DNA from: an uncultured bacterium
GTDB lineage: Bacteria > Actinomycetota > Coriobacteriia > Coriobacteriales > Coriobacteriaceae
Assembly (NCBI GenBank): GCA_905215195.1
Contig: CAJMPF010000001.1
Location: forward strand, 1-39,011
Direction: 5' to 3'
DNA: 39,011 nucleotides
In this document: piece after piece, positions 16,391-37,219 of the stretch
How positions within the stretch are numbered: position 1 is the first letter of the stretch
Layout of the letters: every line of letters begins with the position of its first letter
Position numbers and translations under genes: made by a program
Notes under the pieces: model-generated
The model's database searches: none
Told to the model about the DNA's origin: nothing
The model's input: only the letters and a program-made list of their open reading frames with translations

Positions 16391-16535
16391 AATTGTCTCA
16401 ACCTGTGATATCTAGGCGGCCAAAACCGGTCTTAGTGTTACAGATTGAGACAATTCGGCGTGGTCTACCTTGTTTGTCTCGATCTGTAACGGTTAGGACT
16501 TAAAAACTCGGCTACGTGTTACAGATCGAGACAAA
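16391..16535 (+). repeat. Palindromic repeat cluster 1 (two units: 16391-16455, 16473-16535)
   Basis: Arms of the type TGTCTCRATCTGTAACA / TGTTACAGATYGAGACA around 25-bp cores. Confidence 0.9.
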
Positions 16536-16547
16536 AGAAAAAGAACA

Positions 16548-17285
16548 TTAGGACTTGAAAATAAAGTTTTGATAAGGGACCCGCCCAGTTAAGACGGTGC
16601 GGCAGACAATTGAGATTAGTTTGCCTCCGGAGTCGTAAGCATAATGAGTCAGTTCGATGACCGGAAGTTTTGCAACACCATAATTACTGGCTTCGGAATC
16701 GCTAAGCTGACGTGCTCTATAGCTTTCCCTAACAGATTGGATAGACTTGGACAAGTCGTCCATGATTCTGCTAAATGCCTGAAAATCTAACTGGTTATTC
16801 GGAACGCGCGACTTTGAAATGAAGAACGTATCAGCGCCTATGAAGCTGCCTTCAAGTTCGTAGGTCAATTCAAGACGCTGAATTTCATCGCGACTTTGAC
16901 ATCCAAATTGTTGGAGCATCATTACGGAAATTGGACGACCTGATATGAGGCCGCCGAAATGTTTGGTGATGGCATCCGGATCAACGCCATCGCAATGGCT
17001 TGCAAAGTCAAAGTCTAAAAGTGAATTGAGCTCGCTAACGCGTTTCGGTGCAACAAACGATCCCTTACCTTGGATTCGATAGATACTTCCACGACGCTCC
17101 AGCTCACTCATGGCAAGTCGGACGGTTGTTCTGCTTACGGCGTATTCGTCGCAGAGTTCCATTTCTGTTGGAAGTTTATCGTCTGCTTGATATTCATCGA
17201 CGATCTGCTTGAGCAGCGCGTCGGTGAGCTGTAAATAGAGTGGCCGTTTTTCGTGTGTATCGAGCATTAGAGCCTCAGTTTGCAT
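16548..17285 (-). CDS. GntR family regulator with divergent UTRA-like domain
   Basis: PLYLQL...[22 protein letters not shown]...QGKGSFV; AT-richer codons than the flanks. Confidence 0.88.
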
Positions 17286-17339
17286 GTTGGTTATACCTGA
17301 TGGTTGCCTCAGTCGGGATGTAACGTGGGCAAGGTAACC

Positions 17340-18260
17340 TTAACGTATCACAGAGCGGCTCAGCATGACGATCTGATGCCTGTATCCACGAAGGGCTTGT
17401 CCGAGCGTGAAGATATTCTGGGGCAGGCAAATACCGTTCATGGAGTCCCCGATATGTTGGAGGTCAGCGCCGGCTGCTTTTGCTGCAAGGCCTATTTTCT
17501 TAATGGTCTCGCTATCGCAGGAGTCTTGACTCGTCCCGTTCGCCGCCATGACGAGAACCTTCTCTTCAATTGACTTGCCTACGTTGTGGGATCGTACAAA
17601 ATCTACGATGGCGCGCAGGTCTGCTTCTTGGAAGCAAGGGACGGTGTAGGGGGCTGGCACGAGAAGGATATCGACGCCGAGGTCAACAAACTTGCGCGCA
17701 ATTTCGAGCGTCATGACAGGTTCCGCAACGCCCGCTCCATGCATTTTTCCGGCTATGACCAGGCCATTGAAATGCTCTTTGGAGAGTTTAATCGAATGGG
17801 CGATTGCATCGTTGGAGACGCCGGTTCCAGGGTTGCCCGTCAGGCAGATAAAATCAAATCCGAGTTCGTTAGCCTTTTCTAAGGTCTTGGGAGAGACGCG
17901 ACGACCCATGGGGATTTCCGTTCGGGATTCAGACATCTCTGCCTCGTTATCAACTGGCTCCAGATTGACGCCAATGGGCCTTCCGCATGCTCGCTTCACC
18001 CAAGTGACCGGGTTTTCATTGAGATCATCTGGAATACCGGCAATAACTGGATCGAACACATCGAGCGCGTTAAACAGAAGCAGGTCGGCACCTGCGGCAC
18101 GTTCGATTTCTGCATTAGTAACGCCGCTGAGAAATTGGGAAGAGGGTACGTTTTCCGCCATGATGGTACGTCCCTCGGAAGCCAGAATTGCCTGTTTTAG
18201 ATCCATGGGTGACGTGGCGGCAAAATCGGATGCGGACATGTTCAGTAATCGTTTGGGCAT
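17340..18260 (-). CDS. Uncharacterised PTS-associated protein (probable TIM-barrel, PEP-mutase-like annotation)
   Basis: Motifs ASEGRT, GADLLLFN, GVNLEP, LTGNPGTGVSN, AGKMHGAG, GTSQ, HIGD, RGYRH, recalled from a conserved family found in sugar PTS loci; RBS AAGGA. Confidence 0.7.
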   Translation of the reverse strand: MPKRLLNMSASDFAATSPMDLKQAILASEGRTIMAENVPSSQFLSGVTNAEIERAAGADLLLFNALDVFDPVIAGIPDDLNENPVTWVKRACGRPIGVNLEPVDNEAEMSESRTEIPMGRRVSPKTLEKANELGFDFICLTGNPGTGVSNDAIAHSIKLSKEHFNGLVIAGKMHGAGVAEPVMTLEIARKFVDLGVDILLVPAPYTVPCFQEADLRAIVDFVRSHNVGKSIEEKVLVMAANGTSQDSCDSETIKKIGLAAKAAGADLQHIGDSMNGICLPQNIFTLGQALRGYRHQIVMLSRSVIR

Positions 18261-18307
18261 TGTTACTTCCTTTGACTAGAACGACAGGCTTGTGACATTG
18301 TCTCTAA

Positions 18308-18323
18308 TATTGTTACAACAATA
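18308..18323. promoter_or_regulatory. Putative GntR operator in the divergent promoter region
   Basis: Near-palindrome TATTGTTACAACAATA; related TTGGTTATGACAAAT at 18477-18491. Confidence 0.45.
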
Positions 18324-18615
18324 TATTCAATATGTTATATCCAATCGGTGAACGGTTGCAAACTTATTGTACTGCTCGGAAAAAATAGCCTTTAGCTGGG
18401 AAAATCTTATATTAATCAACTACCGTTCACCGAATAAGTATTTGAATTCTTGACATATCGACAAAGCGGAAAAGAATTGGTTATGACAAATCGCGCAAAT
18501 GATATTACATTTCGCACAAGAACGTATTCACTTACATAAGTGGATACAAACGGGGACGACGACGGTTGAGTCCGGATAAATCGTTGTGTGCCCGGGAATC
18601 ATGAAAGGATGTGTT

Positions 18616-20310
18616 ATGGACGCTATCGTCAAATTCCTTGAAAAACACCAGCCTCTCTTCGACAAAATCTCGAGGAACATTTATCTGGTGGCGATTAAGG
18701 ATGGCTTTCTCTCGAATATGCCAATTGTGCTGTTCTCGAGCCTGTTCCTTCTTCTTTCGACGCTCCCTGCCTATGTAGGCATCACGCTTCCGTCTGAGGT
18801 GCTGGATTTCTTCAATAAAATCTATGCATATACCATGGGACTTCTTGGCATTATGGTGGCCGGCACCACGGCGAGCTCACTTGCCATGTCGATGAACCGT
18901 CGCATGCCTTCGGGTAAATCTCTCAACCCCACCTCGTGCATGGTTTGTGCCATGTGCGGCATGCTCTTGCTATCGGTGACGAACGATGTTGTCTCGATTG
19001 GCGGAGCAGATACATCTGTTTTTGAAACCGGCTATATGGGAACTAAGGGTTTTCTCGCTGCGTTCGTAGCCGCATTCTTGACCGTTAATATCTATAAGGT
19101 GTGCATTAGCCATAATGTGACGATCAAGCTTCCCAAAGAGGTCCCTGGCTCTATTGCGCAGAGTTTTCGCGATATCTTTGCATTTGGGTTTTCGATCCTT
19201 GCGTGCGCTTTTATCGATCTTGCGAGCCGCAAGCTGCTTGCTGTGCCGTTCGCCAATTTGGTATCCGCTCTCATCTCGCCGCTGTTCTCCGCGGTCGACA
19301 CCTATCCTGGCATGGCGCTTATCGAAGGCGCGGTCGCGCTTTTCCAATTTATGGGTATCCACGGTGCTTCGGTTGTCATGAGTCCGATCAATGCTGCGCT
19401 CTACGGCAATACCGTTACCAATCTTGAGGTTTTCCAAGCAGGTGGACACCCGTCAATTGCTCTCACGCAGGACTTTACAAGCTTCATCGGCGGTCTGGGC
19501 GGTTCTGGCTGCACGTTCATCGTTCCTATTATCCTGATCATGTTTATGCGCTCCAAGCAGCTTAAAGCCATGGGTAAGGCATCGATTATCCCGGTGATTT
19601 TTGGAGTTAACGAGCCCGTTATCTTCGGTATGCCGATTGTTCTCAATCCCTATATGTTCGTGCCCTTCCTAGTGGCTCCTATGGTCAACGCCATTATCGG
19701 TAAATTTTTCATTGACGTCATTGGAATGAACGCCCCCATGTATACCATGCCGTGGGCGCTTCCCGGCCCAATTGGTGCGTTCCTCACCACGGGTCTCGAT
19801 CTGCGTTCTCTCGTATTGATGGCAGTGCTGTTGGTCGTTGACTTTGTGATTTACTATCCGTTCTGCAAGGCGTATGACCATCAGCTTTGTTTGGAAGAGT
19901 CTGCAAAGGAGACTGCAGGAACCTCGGATGCAGATGCTATTGCCGCACAGGAAAATGTCGCAAAAGCTCTCGAGGCGGTAAAGGACAAGGCGGAGCAGAT
20001 CCGCGTGCTTGTGCTTTGCCAAGGTGCCGGCACTTCGACTCTCTTGGCAAATGCTCTTCGCGAAGGTGCCGCTGCTAAGGGTATCGATCTGGTTTCTCAG
20101 TCCGGTGCGTACGGAAGCCACTATGAGACGATGGATCAGTACAACGTGATTGTTCTGGCGCCCCAGGCACGCATGTACTATGACGCTATGAAGGCCGATA
20201 CCGATCGCCTTGGAATTAAACTGCTCACCACAAGGGGCAAGGAGTATATCGACCTTACCAACGATCCCGAAGGTGCAATTGACTGGATCGTTCAGGAGCT
20301 GGCCAAATAG
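18616..20310 (+). CDS. lacE: Lactose-class PTS EIICB, paralog 1 (divergent)
   Basis: YLVAIKDGF, KLPKEVP, GIHG, VNEP and IIB motif VLCQGAGTS; RBS AAAGGA. Confidence 0.9.
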   Translation: MDAIVKFLEKHQPLFDKISRNIYLVAIKDGFLSNMPIVLFSSLFLLLSTLPAYVGITLPSEVLDFFNKIYAYTMGLLGIMVAGTTASSLAMSMNRRMPSGKSLNPTSCMVCAMCGMLLLSVTNDVVSIGGADTSVFETGYMGTKGFLAAFVAAFLTVNIYKVCISHNVTIKLPKEVPGSIAQSFRDIFAFGFSILACAFIDLASRKLLAVPFANLVSALISPLFSAVDTYPGMALIEGAVALFQFMGIHGASVVMSPINAALYGNTVTNLEVFQAGGHPSIALTQDFTSFIGGLGGSGCTFIVPIILIMFMRSKQLKAMGKASIIPVIFGVNEPVIFGMPIVLNPYMFVPFLVAPMVNAIIGKFFIDVIGMNAPMYTMPWALPGPIGAFLTTGLDLRSLVLMAVLLVVDFVIYYPFCKAYDHQLCLEESAKETAGTSDADAIAAQENVAKALEAVKDKAEQIRVLVLCQGAGTSTLLANALREGAAAKGIDLVSQSGAYGSHYETMDQYNVIVLAPQARMYYDAMKADTDRLGIKLLTTRGKEYIDLTNDPEGAIDWIVQELAK

Positions 20311-20345
20311 TGGATGCACTTCGTCGTTGATTCGTCGGTGTATGG

Positions 20346-20383
20346 TACGGCCCCGCAGCTTATTGAGCTGCGGGGCCGTATTT
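20346..20383 (+). terminator. Rho-independent terminator
   Basis: TACGGCCCCGCAGCT-TATTG-AGCTGCGGGGCCGTA perfect stem followed by TTT. Confidence 0.8.
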
Positions 20384-20472
20384 CGTTGAGTATCTAATTG
20401 AGACAATGCGCGCAACCGTCGTGAGATCGCATTGGCGCTCTCCGAGTCACCGACAAACTGTCTTCCATCTAT

Positions 20473-20766
20473 GTGACCAATTCGCTTTCGGCCTTTAGCC
20501 TGCTCGAGGCGCGCGAGGATTGCGAGCTGTGCCCGGTGGGCGGCATGTACCGTCGCCGCACCGCCGCCTTTGTGGGCCCCATGGCCGAGGATACCCTGCG
20601 CGCACTAGGGATTGACACGGCGTTTATCGGTGCCAACGGCATTCTGGACGGTGACGTATCTACGTCCAATATGGACGAGGGCCGCATCCAGCAGCTCGCC
20701 TTTAGCAAGGCCGATACGCGCTACCTCATCGCCGACTCCAGCAAGATCGGCAGGCGATACTTCTGC
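20473..20766 (+). pseudogene. Internal fragment of a second copy of the DeoR regulator
   Basis: Near-identical protein to 15880-16173 (VTNSLS...DSSKIG); no HTH and no RBS; runs into unrelated sequence. Confidence 0.85.
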
Positions 20767-20850
20767 CCCCCCCGCCGGCGCAGGGGTACCGCTTTAAAAT
20801 GACGCGTAAATGACTTTGGGCAACAAGGATGAGGCTATTCTGGGATATGA

Positions 20851-22083
20851 CTAGACTCCGTATTTCGTCTTTATGTCCCTTGAGAATGAATCGTAGTCTT
20901 CATAGAGCCCCTCTCTGCTTTCATCCTCGGCGTGGTTTACACGTTCAAGGAGCTTATCCTTTGGAGCCTCTTTTGTTATTGCGGCCTCGCTATCGGGTAT
21001 TGTGGATTGCAAGAATAGTTCTAGAGCATGGACGTCTTTGAGTATGTAGCCCGTCGAACGACCCGCTCCTGTTTTTTCGATTGCGCTGCAACTAACAAGC
21101 TGACCGAGGGTTCGTTTAACGGTAACCTCGCTGATATCGGGGCAGTTGGATCGGATGTCGGATTTCTTAATGACGCCGGGTCTCTGTTGAAATAGAACAG
21201 CGATGCGCGCTTGCTTCGACATGGGACGAGCGCTTGATTCAATTAAGGTACGCTGCTCGAGCTGTCGGTAGGCGGCCAGGGTTGTTCCGAGCATGAAACG
21301 GATAAAGGGTACTTCGGTGTTTTGATTTTCATTCCATCCAGTGGAGCTTGCAGCGAGGGCGTTGTAGTAGAGCGCCTTGTTGTCTTCAATAAGTCGTTCG
21401 ATGCTGATGTAACGCGCAACGTCGTATCCAGTCTTTTCGAGTAGCAGCGTTGTAAGGAGCCGGCTCATCCTGCCATTGCCATCGTTGAAGGGATGAATGC
21501 TGACAAAATCGAAGATGAAGCGGAATGATATAAGGAGGGGGTCGCAAACTTGACGAGATAAGGCGTCGTTGAGGGACCGACAGGCTTCTTCGATAAGTCC
21601 GGGGGTTGCTAGGGCCGAAGGCGGCCTAAAGCGCACAAATCGATTGCCTTGATTGTCGATGGAGATGATTTCGTTATCGCTATCTTTCCAATGGCCCCCA
21701 TACGAGATTGCCGTGTGCGCCATGAGGTCACGATGCAACTGCAAAATGACCGATGGCGTTACGGGAATGGAATCGTGTTGCTCGTGAATAAGCGACAGCA
21801 CATCTCGGTATCCAGCGATTTCTTCCTCTGCGCGGGAGCTTGGCTTGGCGGAATACGCCATGATTGCTTTGAGTCTTTTTTGGGTGGTAACAATTCCTTC
21901 AAGTCCGTTGGAGGATTGGGTGCTTTGGATCTTAGCTTCCTCCATAAGTGACGATAGAAGTTCGGGTTTAACTTGACTCAGAGCAAGCTGTCGGCCTTTA
22001 TGCTCGCGTATCGAGAGGAGGAGGTTGGTGATTGGAGTTGCTTCGAGTTCCGCTGGGACTGTGGTGTAATCGAACTGGCGCAT
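20851..22083 (-). CDS. Class II Fic-family protein with C-terminal winged HTH and an extra tail
   Basis: Canonical HPFNDGNGRMSR; N-terminal inhibitory SxxxEG (SNGLEG); wHTH-like ISEVTVKRTL...IEKTGAGRSTGY; RBS AAGGAG. Confidence 0.92.
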   Translation of the reverse strand: MRQFDYTTVPAELEATPITNLLLSIREHKGRQLALSQVKPELLSSLMEEAKIQSTQSSNGLEGIVTTQKRLKAIMAYSAKPSSRAEEEIAGYRDVLSLIHEQHDSIPVTPSVILQLHRDLMAHTAISYGGHWKDSDNEIISIDNQGNRFVRFRPPSALATPGLIEEACRSLNDALSRQVCDPLLISFRFIFDFVSIHPFNDGNGRMSRLLTTLLLEKTGYDVARYISIERLIEDNKALYYNALAASSTGWNENQNTEVPFIRFMLGTTLAAYRQLEQRTLIESSARPMSKQARIAVLFQQRPGVIKKSDIRSNCPDISEVTVKRTLGQLVSCSAIEKTGAGRSTGYILKDVHALELFLQSTIPDSEAAITKEAPKDKLLERVNHAEDESREGLYEDYDSFSRDIKTKYGV

Positions 22084-22091
22084 GCGGCTCC

Positions 22092-22166
22092 TTTCGGTAT
22101 CACGAACATACTTTCGATATCATAATACCATTAAATGATACCGAAAGTATGTTCGTGATACCGAAA
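22092..22166 (-). promoter_or_regulatory. fic promoter inside a 32-bp inverted repeat with four TGATACCGAAA boxes
   Basis: Arms 22092-22123 and 22135-22166 differ at one position; the minus strand across the 11-bp loop reads TGGTATTAT (extended -10). Confidence 0.75.
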
Positions 22167-22218
22167 ACTAGAAACCATGCTTCATAACTGCTTGGAAAGT
22201 TCGGATTTGACTATCTTA

Positions 22219-22358
22219 TTGTCTTGATCTGTAACAGGTAGACGGTCGAAAGTGGGCTACGTGTTACAGATTGAGATTTTTTGACCGGACTCCTGTTTGT
22301 CTCGATCTGTAACATTTAAGACCGAAAATCCCAGTTAGATGTTACAGATCGAGACGAA
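22219..22358 (+). repeat. Palindromic repeat cluster 2 (two units: 22219-22276, 22296-22358)
   Basis: Same arms, 25-bp cores. Confidence 0.9.
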
Positions 22359-22448: not shown

Positions 22449-23870
22449 TTAGGCCATGAGCAGGCCGGTCTCCGCGACGTTCTTGTACCAGTACGCGCTC
22501 GCCTTGGGATAGCGCTTCTGGGTCTCAAAGTCGATGTAGAACAGGCCATAGCGCTTGTTATAGCCGTTGGTCCAGGAGAACTGATCCTGCAGAGACCACA
22601 CAAAGTAGCCGTCGACGTTAACGCCGCCGTCGATCGCCTTGAGGATCCACGCGAGATGCTGACGCATGTAGTCGATGCGAGGGGCGTCATCGATAAAGCC
22701 GTCCTCGAAGTCGTCCTTATAGCCCATGCCGTTCTCGGTGATGTAGATCTTCTTGTAGTTGGGGTAATCGTTCTTAATGCGCAGCAGCAGATCGTAGAGG
22801 CCCTCGGGATAGATAATCCAGTCCCAATCGGTGGTGGGTACGCCTTCGCGCACGCATGACTCGCCCACGCCCTTGAGGAACCAGCGCGAGGAGCCCTTGT
22901 CGCCGGTGCCATTGTGGTTGATGTCGTTTTCGCCCTCGGCGGCACGCAGGAACTGGCACTTGTAGGTGTTGACGCCCAGGCAATCGTTGTAGGGGAGCGC
23001 GGCGGTCAGCGCGGCGATGTCCTCGTCGCGGACGTCGAGCTCGCCGCCGGCGATATGAGCCAGCTTGGTCGCAGCCTCCATGGTATCGGCTGCATAGTGG
23101 CCGCGGAAGGTGGCGTCGAGTACCCAGCGGTTGTTGATGACGTCGGCCATGCGAGCTGCCTCGCAGTCGGCGGCGTTGTTGGGGTCGAGGGGATACTTGG
23201 GCTCCAGGTTCTGGACAATGCCGATCTCGCCCTCAAAGCCGCCCTCATGGAAGGCGACGACAGCCTTGGCGTGGGCCACCATCATGTTGTGCATGAGCTG
23301 GAAGGCCTTGTCCAGGCGGTACTTCTCGCCGTGCGGCCAGTTGCCGACGATAAAGCTGCCCTCGGCGGTTGCGGGAATCTCGTTAAAGGTAAACCAGTGC
23401 TTGACCTCGGTGAACTCGGCAAAGCAGAACTTGGCGTACTCGACGAAGGCATCGATGGTCGTGCGCGTCAGGAATCCCTCGCCGCCGTCCTGGTAGAAGA
23501 CCTCGGGCGTATCGAAGTGATCGAGCGTGACATAGGGGATAACGCCAGCTTTGTTGCAGGTGGCGAAAAGCTCGTGATAGAAGGCGACGCCCTCGGGGTT
23601 AATCTCGCCAGTGCCGTTGGGGAAGATACGGCTCCAAGCGATGGAGACGCGAATACCGTTGATGCCGAAGCGCTGGCACAGGTCAATATCGACCGGGTAC
23701 TTGTTGTAGAAATCGCTTGCAGGATCGGGGGAGAAGCGACCCTGGGCTGCCAGGAAATCGTCCCAGGGCACTTTGCCCTTGCCGTGCGTACGGGTCTCGC
23801 CCTCAACCTGGTAAGCAGCGGTGGCGCCGCCAAACACAAAGCCGTCGGGGAACTGCATGGGGTTGGTCAT
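22449..23870 (-). CDS. lacG: GH1 6-phospho-beta-galactosidase, paralog 1
   Basis: GGATAAYQVEG, TFNE, ITENG, FSWTNGYNKRYG. Terminator hairpin at about 22385-22427. Confidence 0.92.
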   Translation of the reverse strand: MTNPMQFPDGFVFGGATAAYQVEGETRTHGKGKVPWDDFLAAQGRFSPDPASDFYNKYPVDIDLCQRFGINGIRVSIAWSRIFPNGTGEINPEGVAFYHELFATCNKAGVIPYVTLDHFDTPEVFYQDGGEGFLTRTTIDAFVEYAKFCFAEFTEVKHWFTFNEIPATAEGSFIVGNWPHGEKYRLDKAFQLMHNMMVAHAKAVVAFHEGGFEGEIGIVQNLEPKYPLDPNNAADCEAARMADVINNRWVLDATFRGHYAADTMEAATKLAHIAGGELDVRDEDIAALTAALPYNDCLGVNTYKCQFLRAAEGENDINHNGTGDKGSSRWFLKGVGESCVREGVPTTDWDWIIYPEGLYDLLLRIKNDYPNYKKIYITENGMGYKDDFEDGFIDDAPRIDYMRQHLAWILKAIDGGVNVDGYFVWSLQDQFSWTNGYNKRYGLFYIDFETQKRYPKASAYWYKNVAETGLLMA

Positions 23871-23945
23871 GAGTCATCCTTTCTGTGGGATACGAATAGG
23901 GAGAGGTGCCCGAACTGGGGATCCGGGCACCAACAGAGGGAGGAA

Positions 23946-25724
23946 CTAGTCGAGGTTCTCGCGGAGCCACTTGATGGCGCCAGCGGGGTCGCGAGTAAGG
24001 TCGATATATTCCTTACCGCGGGGAGCGAGCAGCTTAATGCCCAGGCGATCGGTGTCGGCCTTCATGTCGTTGTAGTAGCTACGGACCTGCGGGGCAAGCA
24101 CGATAACGTCGTACTGATCCATGATGGCAGTGTGCTGGCCATAAGCGCCTGCGGAGGAAGCGATGTTCTCTCCGGTCTGTGCGGCACCTTCCTTGATGGC
24201 GTTGGCGAGCATGGCAGAGGTGCCGGCGCCGGCGCACAGGACGAGGACCTTCAGACCATCGACATCCTTCTTGGCGGATGCATCGGCAGCGGTCTCGGGC
24301 TGATCGGCGACAGGCTTGCTGTCGGCGGCAGCGGCGGTCGGCTTGACGGAAGCGGCGGTCTGCTCGACAGCGGGCGCAGAGGTGCTGGCGGCGATGGTGG
24401 CAGCACCATCGGATTCGAGACCCAGCTCGGCGGCACGCTCGGCCTCCTGGTCGCAGAGCAGCTTATCGTATGCCTTCAAGAACGGCAGGTAGATGATGGC
24501 GTCCAGCAAGATGATGATCGCGACAAACACCAGGGCGATAAGCTGGAAGTTCGTGGTGATGAAGATGCCGATGGGGGCGGGGGTAGCCCAAGGCACCACG
24601 AAGGAGAAGCCGTTCATGCCCACGTTATCGATAAAGAACTTGGCAACACTCACGTTGACGCAGCCGGCGGCAACAAAGGGGATGAGCATGTAGGGGTTAA
24701 GGATCATCGGCGCGCCAAAGAGCAGCGGTTCGTTAACGGCGAAGGCAACGGGAACGATCGAGGCCTTACCGACGGCTTTGAGCTGCTTGGACTTCATAAA
24801 GAGAATCAGCAGAAGCGGCACGATGAACGTGGCGCCGGTGCCGCCGAACTCACCCACGAGCGACATGTTAAAGGTGAGGGAGTGTGCGGGGTGGCCGCCT
24901 GCCAGAAGAACCTGCAGGTTCTCGGCCTGGTTGGCAAGACGGATGGGGTCGATGCCCGGCTGGACGATCGAGGGGCCGTGGACGCCGATGAACCAGAAGA
25001 ACGCGGTGGCTGCCTGGATAAGGATAAGGCCAGGATAGGTTTCTGCAGCGGTAAAGAGCGGGGAAAGCAGTTTAATAAGCAGCTCAGAGAACGGAACGCC
25101 CATGAGGTTACGCACAACCACATCGATGATGCCGCAGATGATGACGGCGCCGCCAAAGGGGATGATGTCGCGGAAGTTCTGAGCGATGGCGCCCGGGACT
25201 TCCTTGGGCAGCTTAATGGTCAGATCGCGCGAGACGCAGAACTTATAGACCCAAACGGTAATGAACGCGGCGATATAGGCCGAGAACAGACCGCGCGTGC
25301 CCATGCTGGTGCAATCGAAGACCGAAAGCTCGGAGCCGTTGAACTTGGTGGTGAACTGCGTAACAGCGAGCAGCAGCATGCTGCACTGGGCGGCAACCAT
25401 GGTGGAGCCGTCGTTGAGCACCTTGCCGGCGGGCATGCGACGGTTCATGGAAGCCGTGAAGTTCTTGGCAGTGGTGCCGGCAACCATGATGCCCATGACG
25501 CCCATGGTGAAGTTGTACAGCTTGTTGCACCAGTCGATGAGCGGCTGGGGCAGCGTGATGCCAACTACGCCAGGAAGGGTGGCGATCAACAGAAAGATCG
25601 AAGAGGTAAGGACGATGGGCATGCACCCAAGGAATCCGTCCTTGATGGCCTGGAGGTAGATGTTCCTTGAGATCTTCTCAAAGAACGGTTGATGCTTCTC
25701 GAGCATCTTTACGATGGCGTCCAT
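23946..25724 (-). CDS. lacE: Lactose-class PTS EIICB, paralog 2
   Basis: GVHGPSIV, GGTGAT, VNEP, long Ala/Pro linker, VLCAGAGTS. Confidence 0.92.
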   Translation of the reverse strand: MDAIVKMLEKHQPFFEKISRNIYLQAIKDGFLGCMPIVLTSSIFLLIATLPGVVGITLPQPLIDWCNKLYNFTMGVMGIMVAGTTAKNFTASMNRRMPAGKVLNDGSTMVAAQCSMLLLAVTQFTTKFNGSELSVFDCTSMGTRGLFSAYIAAFITVWVYKFCVSRDLTIKLPKEVPGAIAQNFRDIIPFGGAVIICGIIDVVVRNLMGVPFSELLIKLLSPLFTAAETYPGLILIQAATAFFWFIGVHGPSIVQPGIDPIRLANQAENLQVLLAGGHPAHSLTFNMSLVGEFGGTGATFIVPLLLILFMKSKQLKAVGKASIVPVAFAVNEPLLFGAPMILNPYMLIPFVAAGCVNVSVAKFFIDNVGMNGFSFVVPWATPAPIGIFITTNFQLIALVFVAIIILLDAIIYLPFLKAYDKLLCDQEAERAAELGLESDGAATIAASTSAPAVEQTAASVKPTAAAADSKPVADQPETAADASAKKDVDGLKVLVLCAGAGTSAMLANAIKEGAAQTGENIASSAGAYGQHTAIMDQYDVIVLAPQVRSYYNDMKADTDRLGIKLLAPRGKEYIDLTRDPAGAIKWLRENLD

Positions 25725-25825
25725 AGAGCTCCTTTGCTACTTGATGCGCGATGCATGTGGATGGAACTGGTCGTCGATGGATGGTCAGGACTGCCCGGAA
25801 ACCTTCCTGCTTAAGGAAGGCATTG

Positions 25826-25870
25826 CGAAATGACAACGTTGTCATTTCGTTAATGACAACGTAAGACATT
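25826..25870. promoter_or_regulatory. LacI operators, module 1
   Basis: Perfect 24-bp palindrome CGAAATGACAACGTTGTCATTTCG (25826-25849) plus adjacent degenerate AATGACAACGTAAGACATT. Confidence 0.8.
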
Positions 25871-26008
25871 TTTGGAAGAGCAACAAGGATATACGGGTGA
25901 GCGGTCGATATTGTCCGGTAAACGGTTGATTTGTCAGTCAGGCAGGTAGTGTATGCTAGAACGAAAAAAACAAGCGATGCAAGACCGACTGGAGAAGTAG
26001 TGGCAACG

Positions 26009-27024: not shown

Positions 27025-27247
27025 TTTGTCTTAATCTGTAACAGCTGGGACCCAAAAACTCGGCTAGATGTTACAGATCGAGATTTTTGGCCCGGCTTAT
27101 TCCGTTTGTCTCGATCTGTAACAACTAGACGGTCAAAAGTGGTCTACATGTTACAGATTGAGATTTTCGGCTTGGCCTGTGCGTTCATCTCGATCTGTAA
27201 CAGCTAGGACCGAAAAACTCGGCTAGATGTTACAGATTGAGATGAAC
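27025..27247 (+). repeat. Palindromic repeat cluster 3 (three units: 27025-27083, 27105-27163, 27183-27247)
   Basis: Same arms, cores in A-B-A order, ~80-bp period. Confidence 0.92.
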
Positions 27248-27310: not shown

Positions 27311-27342
27311 ATTGTCTGCAAGCGGCAGGTGGTGTCAGCGTC

Positions 27343-29103: not shown

Positions 29104-29279
29104 AGTTCACGCTCCTCTTTGCATGAAATCTAAATGGCATGGACGTTGAAAACCTATATGGTCTCCCGCTTGCTAAAAGCCCGGGTGCAGGCGGGGTCGG
29201 TCCCAGGGAGAGAGAGGGGAGCGGCTGGGTTTGTATCGCATAGGGCCGCTCCCCTCTCGGGGGAAAGCGAGGCGATGCG

Positions 29280-30722
29280 CTACTGCGCGTCCGCCATAGT
29301 GTCGGCGAGCTCCTTGTACCAGAGTGCCGACTGCTTGATGTAGCGTTTTTGCGTGTCGAAGTCGATGTAGAACAGGCCGTAGCGCTTGTTATAGCCATTG
29401 GCCCACGAGAACTGGTCCTGCAGGCTCCAGATAAAGTAGCCCTGGACGTCGACGCCCTCGGCACGCGCCTGGAGCACCTTCTCCATGTGCTGGTCGACAA
29501 AGTCGATGCGCTCGGGATCGGCGACGATGCCGTTTGCGTCGGGCTCGGGGTCCTTGTGGCCCAGGCCGTTTTCGGTGATATAGATGACGGGGAGGTTGGG
29601 ATAGGTGGCGCTGATGTGCTTGAGCGTGTCGTAGAGGCCTTGCGGGTAGATGAGCCAATCCCAGTCGGTGGTGGGGATACCCGGCATATCGACCTGCTGC
29701 CCGACGCCCTTAAACTTAAAGCACGAGGTGCCCTTGTCTCCGGTGCCGTTAAAGCTGTTGGTTGACTCGCCATCGTAGGCGGCGATAAACGCCGACTGAT
29801 AGTAGTTGAGGCCGAACATATCGTTGCGGGGCGCCGCCTTGGCGAGCTCCTCCATGTCGCTGTCCTCAACCGTAAGTGTGGCGTTGTTGGCACGCAGAAT
29901 CTCGTTGATGAGTGAGAGGGTGCGCGCGGAGTAGTGACCCAGGAAGGCGCCGTCCATGATGAAGTCGGTGTAGAAGGCGTTGTACAGGTCGGCGGCGTGC
30001 TGGTCGGCGGGCGAGTCGGTGGCAGGATATGCCGGCGTCAGGACGTTGACCATGCCAATGCGTCCGCCCAGGTGCTCGGTCTCGTCAAGATCCTTATACA
30101 GGTTGACGGCGCGGGCGTGGGCAACGAGCTCGTTGTGCTGGCTCTGGATGCCGCTCGTCACATCAAAGTGATGGTTGGGCGGGAAGTTGCCTTGGATGTA
30201 TTGGGAGTGCGAGAGGCTGATGAGCTCGTTGATGGTGAACCAATTTTTGACCTCGCGGAACTCGCGGAAGCAGAACTCGGCATAGCGCACATAGGCGTCG
30301 ACGGTCTTGCGGTTGAGCCAGTCGCCCTGGTTGAACAGGGCGGCGGGGGAGTCAAAGTGATGCAGGGACACATAGGGCTCGACGCCATACTTTTTGCAGC
30401 AGGCGAACAGCTCGTGGTAGTGCTTAACGCCCTCGGAGAGGGGTTCGGCATCGTCGCCGTTGGGGAAGATGCGGGTCCAGGCGATGGACACACGAATGGC
30501 GTTGAGTCCATGCTCGGCAGAAAGGCGGATATCCTCCTCGTAGCGGTTGTAGAAATCACTGGCCGGGTCGGGCAAAAAGCGACCCTGGGCGACAAGGTAA
30601 TCGTCCCACATGGTCTTACCCTTGCCTGCCACCTTCGTGGAACCTTCCGTTTGGTACGCGGCGGTTGCGGCGCCCCAAACAAAGCCCTTCGGCAGCTGCT
30701 GTACGCGGTTTAGCAAAGACAT
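29280..30722 (-). CDS. lacG: GH1 6-phospho-beta-galactosidase, paralog 2
   Basis: WGAATAAYQTEG, TINE, ITENG, FSWANGYNKRYG. Confidence 0.9.
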   Translation of the reverse strand: MSLLNRVQQLPKGFVWGAATAAYQTEGSTKVAGKGKTMWDDYLVAQGRFLPDPASDFYNRYEEDIRLSAEHGLNAIRVSIAWTRIFPNGDDAEPLSEGVKHYHELFACCKKYGVEPYVSLHHFDSPAALFNQGDWLNRKTVDAYVRYAEFCFREFREVKNWFTINELISLSHSQYIQGNFPPNHHFDVTSGIQSQHNELVAHARAVNLYKDLDETEHLGGRIGMVNVLTPAYPATDSPADQHAADLYNAFYTDFIMDGAFLGHYSARTLSLINEILRANNATLTVEDSDMEELAKAAPRNDMFGLNYYQSAFIAAYDGESTNSFNGTGDKGTSCFKFKGVGQQVDMPGIPTTDWDWLIYPQGLYDTLKHISATYPNLPVIYITENGLGHKDPEPDANGIVADPERIDFVDQHMEKVLQARAEGVDVQGYFIWSLQDQFSWANGYNKRYGLFYIDFDTQKRYIKQSALWYKELADTMADAQ

Positions 30723-30841
30723 ATGCATACACCCTCTCGTCTCGCTGTTCGATATTGTGCGTTTGCGCTCAGGAGGCTCCCTGGTTAGCGTTCAGCGGTG
30801 AAAAAGCCCGATAAACACTATCTTAAAATGATTAGAACCAA

Positions 30842-31012
30842 AATGAGCACGTGAACATTTGACAATGAGCACGTTAACATCCGGCTGGGATGAATAGAAA
30901 CAAAACAACTTCAAACAGCCGCGAACGGTTGTATTTGTTCGGTAAGCGGTTTTGATTGACAGAAGTTTTCATGTTGTGGTATATGGCTCGGGTATCATGA
31001 GCACGTTATCAA
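30842..31012. promoter_or_regulatory. Three LacI operators, module 2
   Basis: AATGAGCACGTGAACATT (30842), AATGAGCACGTTAACAT (30864), ATGAGCACGTTATCAA (30997). Confidence 0.75.
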
Positions 31013-31072
31013 TGTATGTACGATGCGCCATGGGCGCGGGGAATAGTTGGGAAGCAGGTTAGCGTGGAAGGC

Positions 31073-32101
31073 ATGGATCAGCAGACAAGGAATGGTCGTT
31101 CGGCGAGCGCGGCAGAGGTTGCGGCGCTCGCTGGCGTGAGCCGCCAGACTGTGTCTCGCGTGGTCAACGGTATGCCCAACGTGACGGAAAAGACGCGCAA
31201 GCGTGTGCTGGCCGCCATGGAAGAGCTGGGCTTTCGTCCCAATTTTGCTGGAGCGGCGTTGCGCGGCGGGTCGTATCGTTCTATTGGCCTGTGCATGTAC
31301 AACATCACACGTGTCGGTAACCTGGCGACGCTCGAGGGTATCATGCAAGCGGCGCGCGAGCACGATTTTGCCGTCACTATGATCGAGATGGGCGGCGACA
31401 AGCCCTATGCACTTGCCGATGCCTCGCGCCGCATGGTCGAGCGACCCGTCGACGGCATGATTCTCAACATGAACCGCATGGCTCCCGATTTTGAGGAGTT
31501 TGTTCCCCAGCCGGGAGTGCGAACGGTCATCCTGTCCATGTATGCGCATCCGCGCTGCACGACGATCGACTCCGACCAGTATGGTTCGTGCGAGCTGTTG
31601 ACCAATTATCTGCTGGAACATGGTCACTCGAATATGCGGTTTGTGGCGGGTCCGGAAAACTCGATTTCCTCACGTTTTCGTGAGGCCGGTTGGCGCGATA
31701 CGCTGGGTCGTGCTCATGTCGATGCCGCTCCGATGCTGCGTGGCGATTGGAGTGCGGACAGTGGGTACGCCATGGGCGAGCGGATTGCGGCCGAGGTGCT
31801 TGCCGGCGGGTCGCAGGCGCCGACTGCCGTGCTTGCGGCAAATGACCAGATGGCGCTGGGCGTTATCGCCGCGCTCGAGAACGCGGGCCTGTCCGTGCCC
31901 GACGACGTGAGCGTGGTTGGTATCGACGACGCACTCGAGGGACTTGTTCCTCACAATCGGCTGACGACGCTGCGATTTGATTTGCGCGGTGTCGGTAAGC
32001 TTGCGTTTGAGGCGGCGATTGGAGAGAGCTCGTCTATCGAGGCGATTCATGTGCCGAGCACGCTGGTCGAACGCTCGACTGTTAGGGACATACGGGGTTA
32101 G
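31073..32101 (+). CDS. LacI family regulator 2
   Basis: EVAALAGVSRQTVSRVVN, FRPNFAG, VPDDVSVVGIDD. Confidence 0.92.
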   Translation: MDQQTRNGRSASAAEVAALAGVSRQTVSRVVNGMPNVTEKTRKRVLAAMEELGFRPNFAGAALRGGSYRSIGLCMYNITRVGNLATLEGIMQAAREHDFAVTMIEMGGDKPYALADASRRMVERPVDGMILNMNRMAPDFEEFVPQPGVRTVILSMYAHPRCTTIDSDQYGSCELLTNYLLEHGHSNMRFVAGPENSISSRFREAGWRDTLGRAHVDAAPMLRGDWSADSGYAMGERIAAEVLAGGSQAPTAVLAANDQMALGVIAALENAGLSVPDDVSVVGIDDALEGLVPHNRLTTLRFDLRGVGKLAFEAAIGESSSIEAIHVPSTLVERSTVRDIRG

Positions 32102-32112
32102 GTCCTACTCCG

Positions 32113-32255
32113 TTTGTCTCGATTTGTAACAGGTAGACGGTCAAAAGCGGGCTACGTGTTACAGATTTAGATTCTTCGGAAAGAGCAATCCTGTTCGTCT
32201 AAATCTGTAACAGCTTGGACCCAAAAACTCGGCTAGATGTTACAGATTGAGACAA
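32113..32255 (+). repeat. Palindromic repeat cluster 4 (two units: 32113-32171, 32194-32255)
   Basis: Same arms, cores in B-A order. Confidence 0.92.
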
Positions 32256-32363
32256 GCGGCCCCCGAACCGCCCAAAAAAGGCCGGGGGCGGCGCGCCGTG
32301 TGACGTGCCGCCCCCGGCTGAGAAATGGGGACAGGTTATGTGGGCAGGCGACCCCGCCAGCCG

Positions 32364-33803
32364 CTAGTCCAGACGACGGGTCTGCGCCACGTGCTTATAC
32401 CAGTATGCGCTTGCCTTGGGCGTGCGCTTCTGGGTTTCAAAGTCAACGTAGAAGAAGCCATAGCGCTTGTTGTAGCCATTGGTCCAGGAAAACTGATCCT
32501 GCAGGCTCCACAGGAAGTAGCCGCCCACGTTGACGCCCACCTCCATGGCCTTGAGCAACCAGCGCAGGTGCTGCTCGATGTAGTCGATGCGCGGCTGATC
32601 GTCCACAAAACCGTCCTTGTAGGGGTCCTTGTAGCCCATGCCGTTCTCGGTGATGAAGATCTGCTTGTAGTTGGGGTAGCGCTGCTTAATGTAGACGAGC
32701 AGATCGAACAGGCCCTCGGGATAGATGATCCAGTCCCAGTCGGTGGTGGGGACGCCGGGCTTGTTCACATGCTCGCCAATGCCCTTAACGCGCCAGCGGC
32801 CAGTGCCCTTCTCGCCCGTACCGTTGTGGTGCAGGTCGTTCTCGCCATCGTAGGCCTTCAAGAAGCGGCACTGGTAGTTGTTAACGCCCAGGTAGTCGTT
32901 GTAGAGCGCGGCCTCGCGCATGATTTCCAGATCCTCGTCTAGGATCTCGATGGTGCCGCCCGAGACGGCAGCCAAGCGGTTGGCGCACTCGAGGGTGTCG
33001 GGCGCGTAGTCGCCGCGGAAGGTGGCGTCGAGCAAGAACTGGTTCTGCAGCACGTGCTCGTTGTTGGCGGCTTTGATGTCGGCGGGGTCGTTCTCGTTGA
33101 GCGGATACTTAAACTCCAGCGACTGAATGACGCCGATCTTGCCCTTAAAGCCACCGTTGTGGAAGGCCAGTACTGCCTTGGCGTGGGCGAGCATCATGTT
33201 GTGCTCGCACTGGAAGGCCTCGGCCAGATGCGCCTTAACACCACCGGGGAAGGTGCCCTCGATGTAGGTGTTGGAGGCGTCGGCCCAGATCTCGTTAAAG
33301 GTGAACCAATAGGTCACCTGGTCGGCGTACTCCTTAAAGCAGAAGGTGGCAAAGTCCACAAAGGCATCGATGGTCTCGCGGTTGAGGAAGTCGCCCTTCT
33401 CAAAGAGGGCAAGCGGCGTGTCAAAGTGATGCAGCGTGACGAACGGCTCAACATGGTTCTTATGGCACTCGGCGAAAAGGTCGTGGTAGAACTGAACGCC
33501 CTCGGGGTTAATCTCGCCGGTACCGTTGGGGAAGATGCGGCTCCAGGCGATGGAGAGGCGAATGCCGTTGATGCCAAACTCCTCGCACAGCTCCAGGTCG
33601 ACGGGGTACTGGTTGTAGAAGTCCGAAGCGGGATCGGGGGAGAAACGCCCCTGGGCCTCCAGGAAGTCGTCCCAGGCGACTTTGCCCTTACCGTGAGTGC
33701 GGGTCTCGCCCTCTACCTGGTAGGCAGCGGTGGCACCGCCAAAGACAAAGTCCTCGGGAAACTGCGCGGGCGGGTTGGTGACGCTAGCAGGGTTAACGGA
33801 CAT
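32364..33803 (-). CDS. lacG: GH1 6-phospho-beta-galactosidase, paralog 3
   Basis: GGATAAYQVEG, TFNE, ITENG, FSWTNGYNKRYG. Terminator hairpin at about 32275-32318. Confidence 0.92.
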   Translation of the reverse strand: MSVNPASVTNPPAQFPEDFVFGGATAAYQVEGETRTHGKGKVAWDDFLEAQGRFSPDPASDFYNQYPVDLELCEEFGINGIRLSIAWSRIFPNGTGEINPEGVQFYHDLFAECHKNHVEPFVTLHHFDTPLALFEKGDFLNRETIDAFVDFATFCFKEYADQVTYWFTFNEIWADASNTYIEGTFPGGVKAHLAEAFQCEHNMMLAHAKAVLAFHNGGFKGKIGVIQSLEFKYPLNENDPADIKAANNEHVLQNQFLLDATFRGDYAPDTLECANRLAAVSGGTIEILDEDLEIMREAALYNDYLGVNNYQCRFLKAYDGENDLHHNGTGEKGTGRWRVKGIGEHVNKPGVPTTDWDWIIYPEGLFDLLVYIKQRYPNYKQIFITENGMGYKDPYKDGFVDDQPRIDYIEQHLRWLLKAMEVGVNVGGYFLWSLQDQFSWTNGYNKRYGFFYVDFETQKRTPKASAYWYKHVAQTRRLD

Positions 33804-33873
33804 GATGAAATATCCAATCGTCTAAATTGAAGGGCCAACCGGTCTTGGATAATCGGCTGGCCCTGAGCGTTAC

Positions 33874-35643
33874 TTACTTCGAGAGTTGCTCGCTTACGAA
33901 GGCGAGAGACTTGTCACCGTTCTGGGAAAGCTCGATGTACTGCTTGCCACGGCAGGCGACGCACTTGTTGCCCACGCGCTCGCAGTCCTTCTGCAGGTCG
34001 GCCAGGTAGCTTGCGGCCTGCGGGGCCAGTACGACCAGGTCAAAGTCGGGGAGCATGTCGACGTGGTTGCCATATGCCTCGGCAGCGGTCTCAAGATTGA
34101 TGCCGCGCTCCTTGGCGGCCTTGGCCAGCGCGTTGGCGAGCAGGCCCGAGGTTCCGCCACCCTGGCAGAGCACGAGTACGCGCTTGCCGTTGAGGTCGCT
34201 GGCGGGCGTTGCCTCAACGGCGACAGCGGCGGGAGCGGCATCGGTCTTTACGGCCTCGGCAGCGGCGCCGGCGGCAACGCTCTTGGCGTCAGCCTTGCCC
34301 TGGAAGGCGTCGTTGAGCTTGGCGGCCTTCTCGGCGTTCTTGGCGGCGAGCTCCTCCTGGGAGATCTCGGCCTCCTCGGCGCACTTCTGGGCGTCATAGG
34401 CACGGAAGAACGGATAGTACAGAACGAAGTCGACGACCAGGATAAGGGCGAGCATCACAAAGGCGAGCGGCTGGAAGCCCAGGCCCATGATGGTGCCGAT
34501 GGGGCCGGGGACGGTCCAGGGCAGGGTGTACATAAAGCCGTTCATGCCCAAGAAGTCGATAAAGATCTTGAGGATCCAGATGTTGGCGATCGGGGCAAAG
34601 ACAAACGGGACAAAGAAGACGGGATTGAGCACGATGGGTGCGGCGAACAGCAGCGGCTCGTTGACGGCAAAGCACACGGGAACGATAGCGGCCTTACCGA
34701 CGGCGCGCATCTCCTGGGACTTGGCCAGGAAGCAGAACATAAAGACCAGGACGAGCGTGGCGCCGGTGCCGCCCATGCAGACGACGAAGTACTGGGCACC
34801 CTGGGTCAGGACAGCGGAAGCGTGCTGGCCAGCCTGGAACGCAGCCAGGTTGTCGGTCATGTTGGCAACGAGCGCGGCGGCGATGGCGGGCTCGACGATC
34901 GAGGGGCCGTGGACGCCCACGAACCAGAACAGGCTCATGGCGCCGTAGATCACAGCGAGGCCGATGTAGCCATCGGCAGCGGTGAACAGGGGCTGGAACA
35001 CCTGGATGACGCCCTGGGCAAAGCAGAAGCCAAAAGCAGCGCGGAAGACGATGTCAAAAACCCAAAAGACGGTGATGCAGACGGAGAAGGGGATGATGTC
35101 CTTGAAGGTCTGCGAGATGTTGGGCGGAACCTGCTCGGGCATCTTGACGGTGATGTTGCGCTTAATGAAGAACTTGTAGATGATGCCGGTCACAAACGCA
35201 GCGATGAAAGCGGTCAGCAGGCCCTTGGAACCAAGGTAGGTGGTGTTGAAACCGCTGGCGGCGTCCGTGGCGATCGTGTCGCTCGAAAGGAGCAAGAAGC
35301 CGATGATGGCCGCGCACATGCACGAGATAAAGTTGATCTGGTTGTTCTTGGGCAGATCGCGGTTCTGAGCGTCGGCGAAGTGCTTGGCCGTGGTGGCGGC
35401 GCAGGCGATGGCCAGGATGCCCATGGAGTAGTTGTAGCACTTCCACAGGGCGTTGTTGATGTCATCGGGCCAGTAGAAACCCCAGATGTTGGGGACCGAG
35501 GCTACCAGGCAGAAGATGGACGAGAAGATGATGATGGGGATGACGGAGATAAAGCCGTCGCGGATCGCCTTGAGGTACTTGTTGCGGGCGATCGCGTTGA
35601 AAAAGGGCTGGCTCTTTTCGATGATGGCGATGAGTTGCTCCAT
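33874..35643 (-). CDS. lacE: Lactose-class PTS EIICB, paralog 4
   Basis: YLKAIRDGF, GVHGPSIVEPAIAA, GGTGAT, VNEP, VLCQGGGTSGLLANAL. Confidence 0.93.
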   Translation of the reverse strand: MEQLIAIIEKSQPFFNAIARNKYLKAIRDGFISVIPIIIFSSIFCLVASVPNIWGFYWPDDINNALWKCYNYSMGILAIACAATTAKHFADAQNRDLPKNNQINFISCMCAAIIGFLLLSSDTIATDAASGFNTTYLGSKGLLTAFIAAFVTGIIYKFFIKRNITVKMPEQVPPNISQTFKDIIPFSVCITVFWVFDIVFRAAFGFCFAQGVIQVFQPLFTAADGYIGLAVIYGAMSLFWFVGVHGPSIVEPAIAAALVANMTDNLAAFQAGQHASAVLTQGAQYFVVCMGGTGATLVLVFMFCFLAKSQEMRAVGKAAIVPVCFAVNEPLLFAAPIVLNPVFFVPFVFAPIANIWILKIFIDFLGMNGFMYTLPWTVPGPIGTIMGLGFQPLAFVMLALILVVDFVLYYPFFRAYDAQKCAEEAEISQEELAAKNAEKAAKLNDAFQGKADAKSVAAGAAAEAVKTDAAPAAVAVEATPASDLNGKRVLVLCQGGGTSGLLANALAKAAKERGINLETAAEAYGNHVDMLPDFDLVVLAPQAASYLADLQKDCERVGNKCVACRGKQYIELSQNGDKSLAFVSEQLSK

Positions 35644-35702
35644 GCAATGCTCCTAAGAGTCGGTGGGTTAGCAACGATGGTAGCTTTTGACGTTCGGTTG
35701 CC

Positions 35703-35986
35703 AAAATGTTGACGTTGCCATTTTGTGACACAAAAAAAGAAGCGAACCGGTGGTTCCTGTGCCTGCGAACCGTCGATTCCTTACGCGTAAACGTTTGAGC
35801 CGCCCGGTGGCTCTGTGTTTGCACAATGGCAACGTTAACATTTGGGCGACAAAAGCCGTTCGGGGAAGCAAAAATGTCGGTGAACGGTAGGTTTTGGGTG
35901 GTGAGCGTATGGTGGGGGAGGCGTTAGATATACTTGAAGACGTTTCATTTGACTGCGTAGGGTGCCACCAATGGCATCGTTGACAT
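35703..35986. promoter_or_regulatory. Three LacI operators, module 3
   Basis: AAAATGTTGACGTTGCCATTTT (35703), AATGGCAACGTTAACATT (35825), AATGGCATCGTTGACAT (35970). Confidence 0.75.
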
Positions 35987-36000
35987 AGAAAGATCAACCT

Positions 36001-37005
36001 ATGGCCGCTGTTAAAAAATCGGTTTCCGTTAAGGATGTGGCGCTCCTCGCGGGCGTCTCAGAACAGACGGTCTCGCGCACTGTCCACGATTCGCCCAGCG
36101 TGCGCCCCGAGACCAAGGAGCGCGTGCGTGCCGCCATGCGCGAGCTGGGGTATCGCCCCAATTTTGCCGGTCGATCGCTGCGCCGTGGCAAGTTTAAGAC
36201 CGTCGGCGTCGCCATGTTCAACATTACCGGTACTGGTAACCTCGACCGTATGGAGGGCTTTGCCGCCGCGGCCGACAAACATGGCTATGCCATCACCCTC
36301 ACTAAAGTAGATGGACATCCCTATACCCTCGAGAGTGCATCGTCGCGTATGAGCGCGCTGCCGGTAGACGGCATGGTCGTGATCATGAATCGCATGCCGG
36401 CGGACTTTGGCACCTTCGAGCCGCTGCCCGGCATGCAGACGGTGCTCGTTACGATGCTGGAGCACCCTCTCTGTTCAACGGTCGATAACGACCAGTTCGA
36501 TTGCTCGCGCCAGGTGGTCGAGTACTTGCTGGGGCGGGGGCACAAAACCGTGCACTTTATTTCGTGTCCCGAGCGCTCGCTTTCGGGCATGCGGCGCGAG
36601 GAAGGCTGGCGCGAAACATTGCGCGCGCATGGTATTGAACCGCCGCGACTCGTCCGTGGGGATTGGACGGCACAGAGCGGATATGCTGCTGGTCAGGCTC
36701 TGGCGGAAGATCCGACCTGTACGGCCATTTATGCTTCCAACGATGCCATGGCCTACGGCTGCATTCGCGGGCTCGAGTCGTGCGGAAGGCATGTGCCCGA
36801 GGACGTGAGCGTGGTGGGTGTTGATGACAGCCTGGGCGATATCGTGCCCGACCGTCGCCTGACCACGGTGCGCTTTGACAACAAGCGCGTCGGCATGTGG
36901 GCGGTCGACAAGATTGCCGGCGCCGATGGGGGTGCGTCTGGCGTGGAGCACATGCTGATTCCCGGTGTGCTCGTAGAGGGCGATACGGTGCGCGACTTGC
37001 GTTAG
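36001..37005 (+). CDS. LacI family regulator 3
   Basis: KDVALLAGVSEQTVSRT, YRPNFAGRSL, VPEDVSVVGVDD. Confidence 0.92.
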   Translation: MAAVKKSVSVKDVALLAGVSEQTVSRTVHDSPSVRPETKERVRAAMRELGYRPNFAGRSLRRGKFKTVGVAMFNITGTGNLDRMEGFAAAADKHGYAITLTKVDGHPYTLESASSRMSALPVDGMVVIMNRMPADFGTFEPLPGMQTVLVTMLEHPLCSTVDNDQFDCSRQVVEYLLGRGHKTVHFISCPERSLSGMRREEGWRETLRAHGIEPPRLVRGDWTAQSGYAAGQALAEDPTCTAIYASNDAMAYGCIRGLESCGRHVPEDVSVVGVDDSLGDIVPDRRLTTVRFDNKRVGMWAVDKIAGADGGASGVEHMLIPGVLVEGDTVRDLR

Positions 37006-37219
37006 GGTGCGGCCCTGTTTGGGTTGCCGCTAATTGTGTTCGATATTGTTCAGATTGGTTTAAAAACCGTTCACGGGCGAAAAGTGACCGTTCATAGTTC
37101 GAAAGTACGTTTTGAGCTGTTCTTTTTTGTTTGAATGTTATTGCTTCTGTCATACACAACGCAGCGCGTATGCCCGGACGCGATGCTCTCCATTGGTTCA
37201 TATGTGAAAGGAACGCAAT

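Follow-up and report, generated by a model that had tools for sequence, protein, structure and literature searches.

The stretch of DNA analysed here (39,011 nucleotides; hereafter the window) is the entire 39-kb contig CAJMPF010000001.1 of a fragmented 1.93-Mb assembly (GCA_905215195.1) from an uncultured member of the Coriobacteriaceae. It carries a lactose-type phosphotransferase system (PTS) locus in which nine inverted-repeat units of about 60 bp form four arrays (R1 to R4) between the sugar modules. An earlier note, made from the sequence alone, had read this locus as a possible cassette-like PTS array, in which co-oriented repeats act as recombination points for whole sugar modules that share one IIA protein. 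Gene calls and Pfam and NCBIfam profiles bore out the gene order given there, and the features are listed below, with module frequencies referring to a set of 97 related loci.

15484..16275, + strand: DeoR regulator (Pfam), the conserved left anchor of the locus
16393..16533: array R1 (repeat scan), two units, two to four in relatives
16548..20310: module 0, of lower GC content, present in 28 of 97 loci
16548-17285, - strand: GntR regulator of module 0
17340-18260, - strand: DUF7916 gene of module 0, the enzyme left unnamed in the earlier note
18616-20310, + strand: lactose-type IICB gene of module 0
20472..20771, + strand: duplicated deoR 3' fragment, 87% identical to deoR, an alternative edge of module 0
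20851..22083, - strand: fic, one among several interchangeable passengers in the slot preceding R2
22219..22356: array R2 (repeat scan), two units
22449..27010: module 1, present in 81 of 97 loci
22449-23870, - strand: lacG of module 1
23946-25724, - strand: IICB gene of module 1
about 26009-27010, + strand: lacI of module 1
27026..27244: array R3, three units (one to four in relatives), the last of which is the left edge of module 2
27343..32101: module 2, present in 61 of 97 loci, of low diversity, with a sweep that is likely recent
27343-29103, - strand: IICB gene of module 2
29280-30728, - strand: lacG of module 2
about 31073-32101, + strand: lacI of module 2
32114..32254: array R4, two units; the first unit and a linker move with module 2, and the second unit is its right edge
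32364..37005: module 3, present in 96 of 97 loci, without an array on its right
32364-33803, - strand: lacG of module 3
33874-35643, - strand: IICB gene of module 3
36001-37005, + strand: lacI of module 3
37220..37558, + strand: lactose-type PTS IIA gene (lacF), the only close IIA in the assembly

All three GH1 enzymes passed the NCBIfam lacG cut-off and all four IICB proteins passed the lactose/cellobiose IIC cut-off; none of the four passed the strict lactose IIC cut-off, and the IIA also scored under its strict lactose cut-off. With an IICB, a 6-phospho-beta-galactosidase and an IIA found together, the locus has the composition of a lactose-type PTS operon. The single shared IIA postulated earlier was confirmed for this assembly, in which the sole other IIA homologue is 35% identical and lies on C27 with another system. 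The proposal that each module has its own transporter, enzyme, regulator and operators holds for the three lacG/IICB/lacI modules, which carry module-specific LacI-type palindromes, putatively operators, at 25829 (module 1), at 30842, 30864 and 30996 (module 2) and at 35705, 35825 and 35970 (module 3). The LacG paralogues of these modules are 52-68% identical to one another. The locus resembles the Firmicutes lactose PTS/LacG pathway (TIGR01233, TIGR00410, TIGR00823) in its passing of the lacG and IICB cut-offs and in the tagatose-type kinase gene upstream; it differs in having three paralogous modules served by one IIA, with LacI and operator-like sites specific to each module.

Each repeat unit consists of two 15-bp inverted arms flanking a 25-bp centre, and successive units are spaced by 25-26 bp, which places an arm every 40 bp. 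The arrays do not arise by chance, since the fold of R3 lies far from that of shuffled sequences (z = -10.5) and a reversed-pattern control gave no matches in 41 genomes. Co-orientation, as described earlier, was found throughout the window, where the A-rich centre is on the + strand in nine of nine units; elsewhere in the assembly, orientation is mixed on three of the nine other array-bearing contigs. R3 and R4 do begin close to lacI stop codons, about 15 and 12 bp past them. The 8-mer noted after the third lacI (37014-37021) is present but lacks a following arm, and no array lies between lacI3 and lacF in the window or in any of the 97 loci. The repeat family is dispersed, with 10 further arrays on the nine other contigs, and its exact unit pattern occurs in 22 of 24 genus relatives as opposed to none of 16 genomes from other families; the repeat-bearing relatives that have names are nearly all Collinsella. 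Among 96 distinct units the arms are near-invariant, and pairing of the variable arm position with its mirror position is 0.56, about chance; these two properties together suggest a DNA site read by a protein rather than a hairpin. An Rfam scan of the window returned a tRNA only, with no RNA-family match for the repeat. Both the number (1-4 per site) and the content of units at syntenic sites differ between strains, and elsewhere entire arrays can be present or absent at a site.

We searched 150 genomes of the genus with two anchors, deoR and lacF, which lie on a single contig in 103 of the 150 (counted by hand). The search retrieved 97 loci, 22 of them trimmed to 20 kb, and after removal of a distant rearranged relative (L072) and addition of the window locus the final set again comprised 97; six further same-contig loci of ~22 kb were left out, so the frequency of module 0 (28 of 97) is an underestimate. 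Across the set the locus spans 6.6 to 25.5 kb. Its module content varies: seven combinations were found, namely 1+2+3 (n = 37), 0+1+2+3 (n = 22), 1+3 (n = 16), 3 alone (n = 14), 0+1+3 (n = 5), 2+3 (n = 2) and 0+1 (n = 1), and the invariance that the earlier note had named as telling against exchange was not seen. No module reordering occurred in any of the 97 loci.

In 21 of 21 loci that carry modules 1 and 3 without module 2, the breakpoint lies in an array, as had been predicted, and the empty join reads from the end of lacI1 through the array to the tail of lacG3. In filled alleles, module 2 lies between two units of one subtype, the second unit of R4 being identical in subtype to the last unit of R3, and the first R4 unit and its linker travel along. 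The left flank of R1 is joined via an array to the tail of lacG1 in 11 loci, which is the predicted R1-to-R2 empty allele, and an R1-to-R3 allele was present in one locus (L045), where the R1 flank is followed by a first unit and linker as found in R1-type empty alleles and then by the module-2 tail. The 275 arrays in the 97 loci have eight classes of left flank, five of which meet at least two different downstream blocks across the array. The filled locus L063 and the empty locus L006 show no difference over at least 465 bp counted from the first base of the last unit. No lacG, lacE or lacI chimeras were found (three windows below 85% identity over all genes tested, none of them in lacG or lacE), so the breakpoints inside paralogue homology that would have counted against the repeats are not seen, and recombination between paralogues was rejected as the cause of module loss. 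A 7.3-kb array-bounded block at a second locus distinguishes G007 from G000 and G021; the candidate block on G007 C21 was rejected, as it is a duplication that takes in a gene end.

Module 2 also differs from its neighbours in diversity. In the 59 loci carrying modules 1, 2 and 3, diversity was 0.45% in module 2 versus 4.15% in module 1 and 3.55% in module 3, a roughly 10-fold reduction; third-position diversity was 0.8-1.1% versus 9-17%, and Tajima's D was -2.0 versus -0.9 for the neighbours. Local loss of diversity together with an excess of rare variants is the pattern expected of a gene-specific sweep, a pattern that does not separate selection from neutral spread. The three module-2 genes are free of premature stops in all 61 loci. 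The linker preceding the last R3 unit is present in 40 of 59 filled alleles versus 0 of 21 empty ones; the empty alleles are therefore mostly not fresh deletions, and the likely history is acquisition of the block and its subsequent spread. Low diversity and the lack of edge markers in empty alleles point together to recent gain and sweep rather than to recurrent excision, and module 2 has likely spread in recent times through most of the sampled genomes. A family search of 61 genomes for a divergent donor gave only 99-100% matches or 64-78% paralogue matches, and no donor of intermediate divergence was found. Divergent terminator or lacI2 3' ends occur on an otherwise swept module 2 at the junction before the module in L031 and after lacI2 in L010, L090 and L091, and may be traces of older module-2 versions that had diverged and lie outside the sample.

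These data bear on an integron-like scheme, in which modules would be excised as circles between co-oriented arrays and re-inserted at array sites. The same-subtype direct repeats flanking module 2 and the common orientation of all nine units are what such a scheme would call for, but the module-2 edge markers occur in none of the 21 empty alleles, module order is constant, module 2 was confined to this locus in each of the 13 other genomes matched, and no recombinase gene is present among the open reading frames of the window; we consider the scheme highly improbable. A back-joint from R4 to R3 was not found in the contigs of four runs, although contigs drop rare forms and cannot show absence; the joints listed in those contigs were mis-pairings of repeats or paralogues. 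In integron cassettes and pdif modules, palindromic sites likewise separate gene blocks; the cargo here differs in consisting of whole regulated operons, and there is neither a recombinase in the window nor reordering. Overall, the reading as a cassette-like PTS array is partly supported, in that the sugar modules are variable and bounded by repeats, with no sign of a mobile cassette system.

At the right edge of module 2, the commonest haplotype drops from 53 of 61 loci to 20 of 61 inside the first 40 bp of the unit and then declines slowly, to 13 at 85 bp, 9 at 165 bp and 2 at 465 bp. Distance correlation was -0.01 to 0.20 across six array junctions versus 0.05-0.81 across 11 array-free junctions. 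Several observations weigh against a role of the arrays as the points at which modules are exchanged. Linkage is short everywhere (rho of 0.02-0.37 over 300-bp gaps in module 1 and module 3 genes) and crossovers pile up at any homology edge, so a sharp edge is no proof of a hot spot; unit centres can, moreover, change by gene conversion. Module 3 has no array on its right side and is nearly fixed, being present in 96 of 97 loci. In 10 loci module 0, the GntR block, is absent via homology between deoR and the deoR fragment; the deoR 3' end is a second breakpoint independent of the repeats, and many alleles diverge directly past the deoR stop. Five alleles without module 1 retain a lacI1 remnant before the array and break inside lacI1, and in L056 lacI1 is joined to the lacF promoter with no array at all. 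Module 2 sits beside module 1 and at no other location in the 13 other genomes matched, and four-gamete conflicts affect 35-45% of site pairs more than 100 bp apart inside it. Since the genomes are related by kinship, the counts given above overstate the number of independent events.

Beyond the locus, an indel control (indels of at least 500 bp) compared 600 kb of G115 with the fragmented contigs of G000 and with only 200 kb of G021; of its 42 rows, four (three events) lie within 60 bp of an array and none breaks inside a unit. The edges of the three near-array events proved to lie in or next to another hairpin repeat or to be insertion sequence (IS) insertions, and an enrichment of indels at arrays did not hold up in this control. 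Of 11 low-divergence tracts indicative of recent exchange between G115 and G000, nine are not at arrays and two lie in module 2. The array effect is accordingly strong at the lactose-type locus but not general; it is local, and genes in these genomes are mostly gained and lost without array involvement.

The earlier note had itself offered a mundane alternative, that REP-like elements favour convergent intergenic gaps, and the arrays do show such an excess (6 of 14 classified arrays versus 91 of 528 gaps overall, from rough gene calls); this alternative holds in part. More broadly, arrays might settle passively behind genes or in convergent gaps, only whole modules would survive selection, and the edges would be single old events copied by recombination. 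Module 2 could stem from a single gain, background recombination is high, and the presence or absence of entire arrays at other sites would also be expected if arrays were passive. We nevertheless judge this quite unlikely: the joins lie inside units, with a unit of the same subtype at both sides of module 2, and not anywhere in the gap; five left flanks each meet several right tails across arrays; and L045 and the pair L063/L006 record separate crossovers within a unit.

On balance, it seems to us reasonably probable that incoming DNA enters by ordinary homologous recombination, for which the dispersed 60-bp arrays provide short stretches of anchoring homology, and that module 2 was gained in this way and then swept. 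A donor fragment would undergo one crossover in an array unit and the other in adjoining long homology or in a second array, with the outcome that a whole regulated module is added in tandem or dropped beside the shared IIA, its genes unbroken. The module could later spread via flanking recombination, and the sweep may have been driven by selection on sugar use. Two loci in which module 2 replaces module 1 (L031 and L045) might represent the type of donor able to build the tandem form. The arrays probably persist because of a different role, as DNA sites bound by protein, and their use here would be opportunistic. The locus provides evidence, down to single bases, that whole metabolic operons are joined at members of a dispersed repeat family, and the spread of one lactose-type uptake module over many Collinsella lineages, likely a recent sweep, could be related to diet, age or geography.

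Compatible with arrays acting as homology anchors is a further proposal, that an AbiEi/DUF559-like protein binds the 15-bp arms and nicks or cuts them, making the arrays active hot spots by a REP/RAYT-like logic with another enzyme. The candidate gene (L116:3671-4762) encodes a protein of 364 residues whose N-terminal part resembles AbiEi and whose tail resembles a DUF559 nuclease; arrays flank the gene left and right in all 18 orthologue loci versus 0 of 12 paralogue loci, one of the latter having an array 1 kb off. The near-invariant arms, spaced 25 and 25-26 bp, and their chance-level mirror pairing (0.56) would fit an enzyme that reads sequence and not a hairpin. The predicted structure (pLDDT 83) has its best fold matches to an AbiEi antitoxin (E 5e-3) and the nuclease domain of I-Bth0305I (E 0.12). 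Against this stand the lack of any fold match at E 0.001, a Pfam DUF559 match below cut-off, an orthologue not found in 5 of 23 array-bearing genomes, including this assembly (where the contig ends beside the site), and the fact that most arrays elsewhere do not mark indels; we regard a dedicated nuclease as rather doubtful. A bolder form of the proposal, which we put forward only tentatively and think unlikely, is an undescribed repeat-plus-nuclease system: an AbiEi/DUF559-type enzyme would read the phased 15-bp arms, the arrays would be programmed entry points, and the lactose PTS locus would be a plug-in platform swapping sugar modules and defence genes, with one module sweeping human-gut populations under diet selection.

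By analogy, the closest known model is the NIME array of Neisseria. According to the accessible part of the text of PMC1797815, NIME arrays were not seen outside Neisseria, and the proposal made for them is that they favour recombination with exogenous DNA, by which flanking genes would be exchanged and genes lying between arrays would enter arrays of the chromosome; the idea is met here in a gut actinobacterium. In both cases, as described in that part, conserved short inverted repeats alternate with variable spacers and unit number varies at syntenic sites. In contrast to NIMEs, the Collinsella arms have a consensus unlike the 20-bp dRS3 consensus, their phase is fixed at 40 bp, the host belongs to another phylum, and the flanked blocks are sugar PTS operons gained or lost whole; membership in the NIME family was rejected on the dRS3 consensus and the Neisseria host. 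REP/BIME elements with TnpA-REP (RAYT), in the portion of PMC3333891 available to us, are comparable in that palindromic arrays lie dispersed between genes, their linkers and copy number vary, and one nuclease gene is bordered by the repeats; they differ in that the gene bracketed in Collinsella is AbiEi/DUF559-like and not an HUH Y1 enzyme, and in that arm variation in Collinsella is not compensatory. A RAYT partner was rejected, both Y1_Tnp matches of the genome being without repeat units nearby. Gene-specific sweeps in gut bacteria, in which recombination spreads carbohydrate loci across lineages and local diversity is low, are described as common in the part of PMC12916291 that could be consulted, whose main text, supplements excluded, contains no occurrence of Collinsella; the present case differs in concerning an accessory block with edges set by repeats. 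Our literature search, which left aside supplements and most subscription papers, returned no description of the repeat or the locus, and the accessible part of PMC8040213 contains none of this repeat.

Other DNA occupies the variable positions of the locus. In L075:776-10120, and also in L073, L079 and L080, the slot following deoR holds a 9.3-kb block with genes for a C5 methylase, an EcoRII-type nuclease and a DUF2326/LmuB-like protein, and judged by this gene content the sugar locus also works as a defence slot. An 11-kb alternative PTS module in L033:1500-12400 (also in L030) has an array at its start and a deoR fragment at its end, as is the case for module 0; it comprises genes for a 2-hydroxyacid dehydrogenase, a PRD regulator, an aminotransferase, M42 and M24 peptidases and a PTS IIC. 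Before the array, fic is replaced in L033:12877-14247 by an AAA_14/DUF4143 gene (PDC-S01) and in L002 (777-2033) by what we take to be an AlbA/HATPase-like gene. Alleles without fic retain the near-perfect inverted repeat of 32 bp that lies upstream of this gene (window 22092-22166) and is possibly an operator.

An 11-bp motif precedes the sugar operons at window positions 2490, 2509, 2708, 18346, 18422, 25916, 35878, 37066 and 38932 (nine sites in the 39-kb window, 68 in the 1.93-Mb assembly) and is likely the site of a carbon regulator common to these operons, superimposed on the LacI operators of the individual modules. To the left of the locus, window positions 2943-13007 hold genes for a mannose-family PTS, a GntR regulator, a SIS protein, an amidohydrolase, a PfkB kinase and YhcH, which look like an amino-sugar pathway of the N-acetylgalactosamine (GalNAc) type feeding tagatose metabolism. 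Use of GalNAc by C. aerofaciens, reported in the part of PMC10808065 seen, would fit this gene set. Between the amino-sugar genes and deoR lie a tRNA gene (13216-13288) and a lone sorbose-family IIB gene (13395-13928).

Beyond the window, a second dispersed hairpin family, with 31 copies in G000 and none in the window, often abuts arrays (L113, L117) and receives IS insertions and block edges. At L110 in G021, large surface-protein genes stand in tandem, and behind each lies an array whose first unit is similar; this 14-kb block is not in G115.

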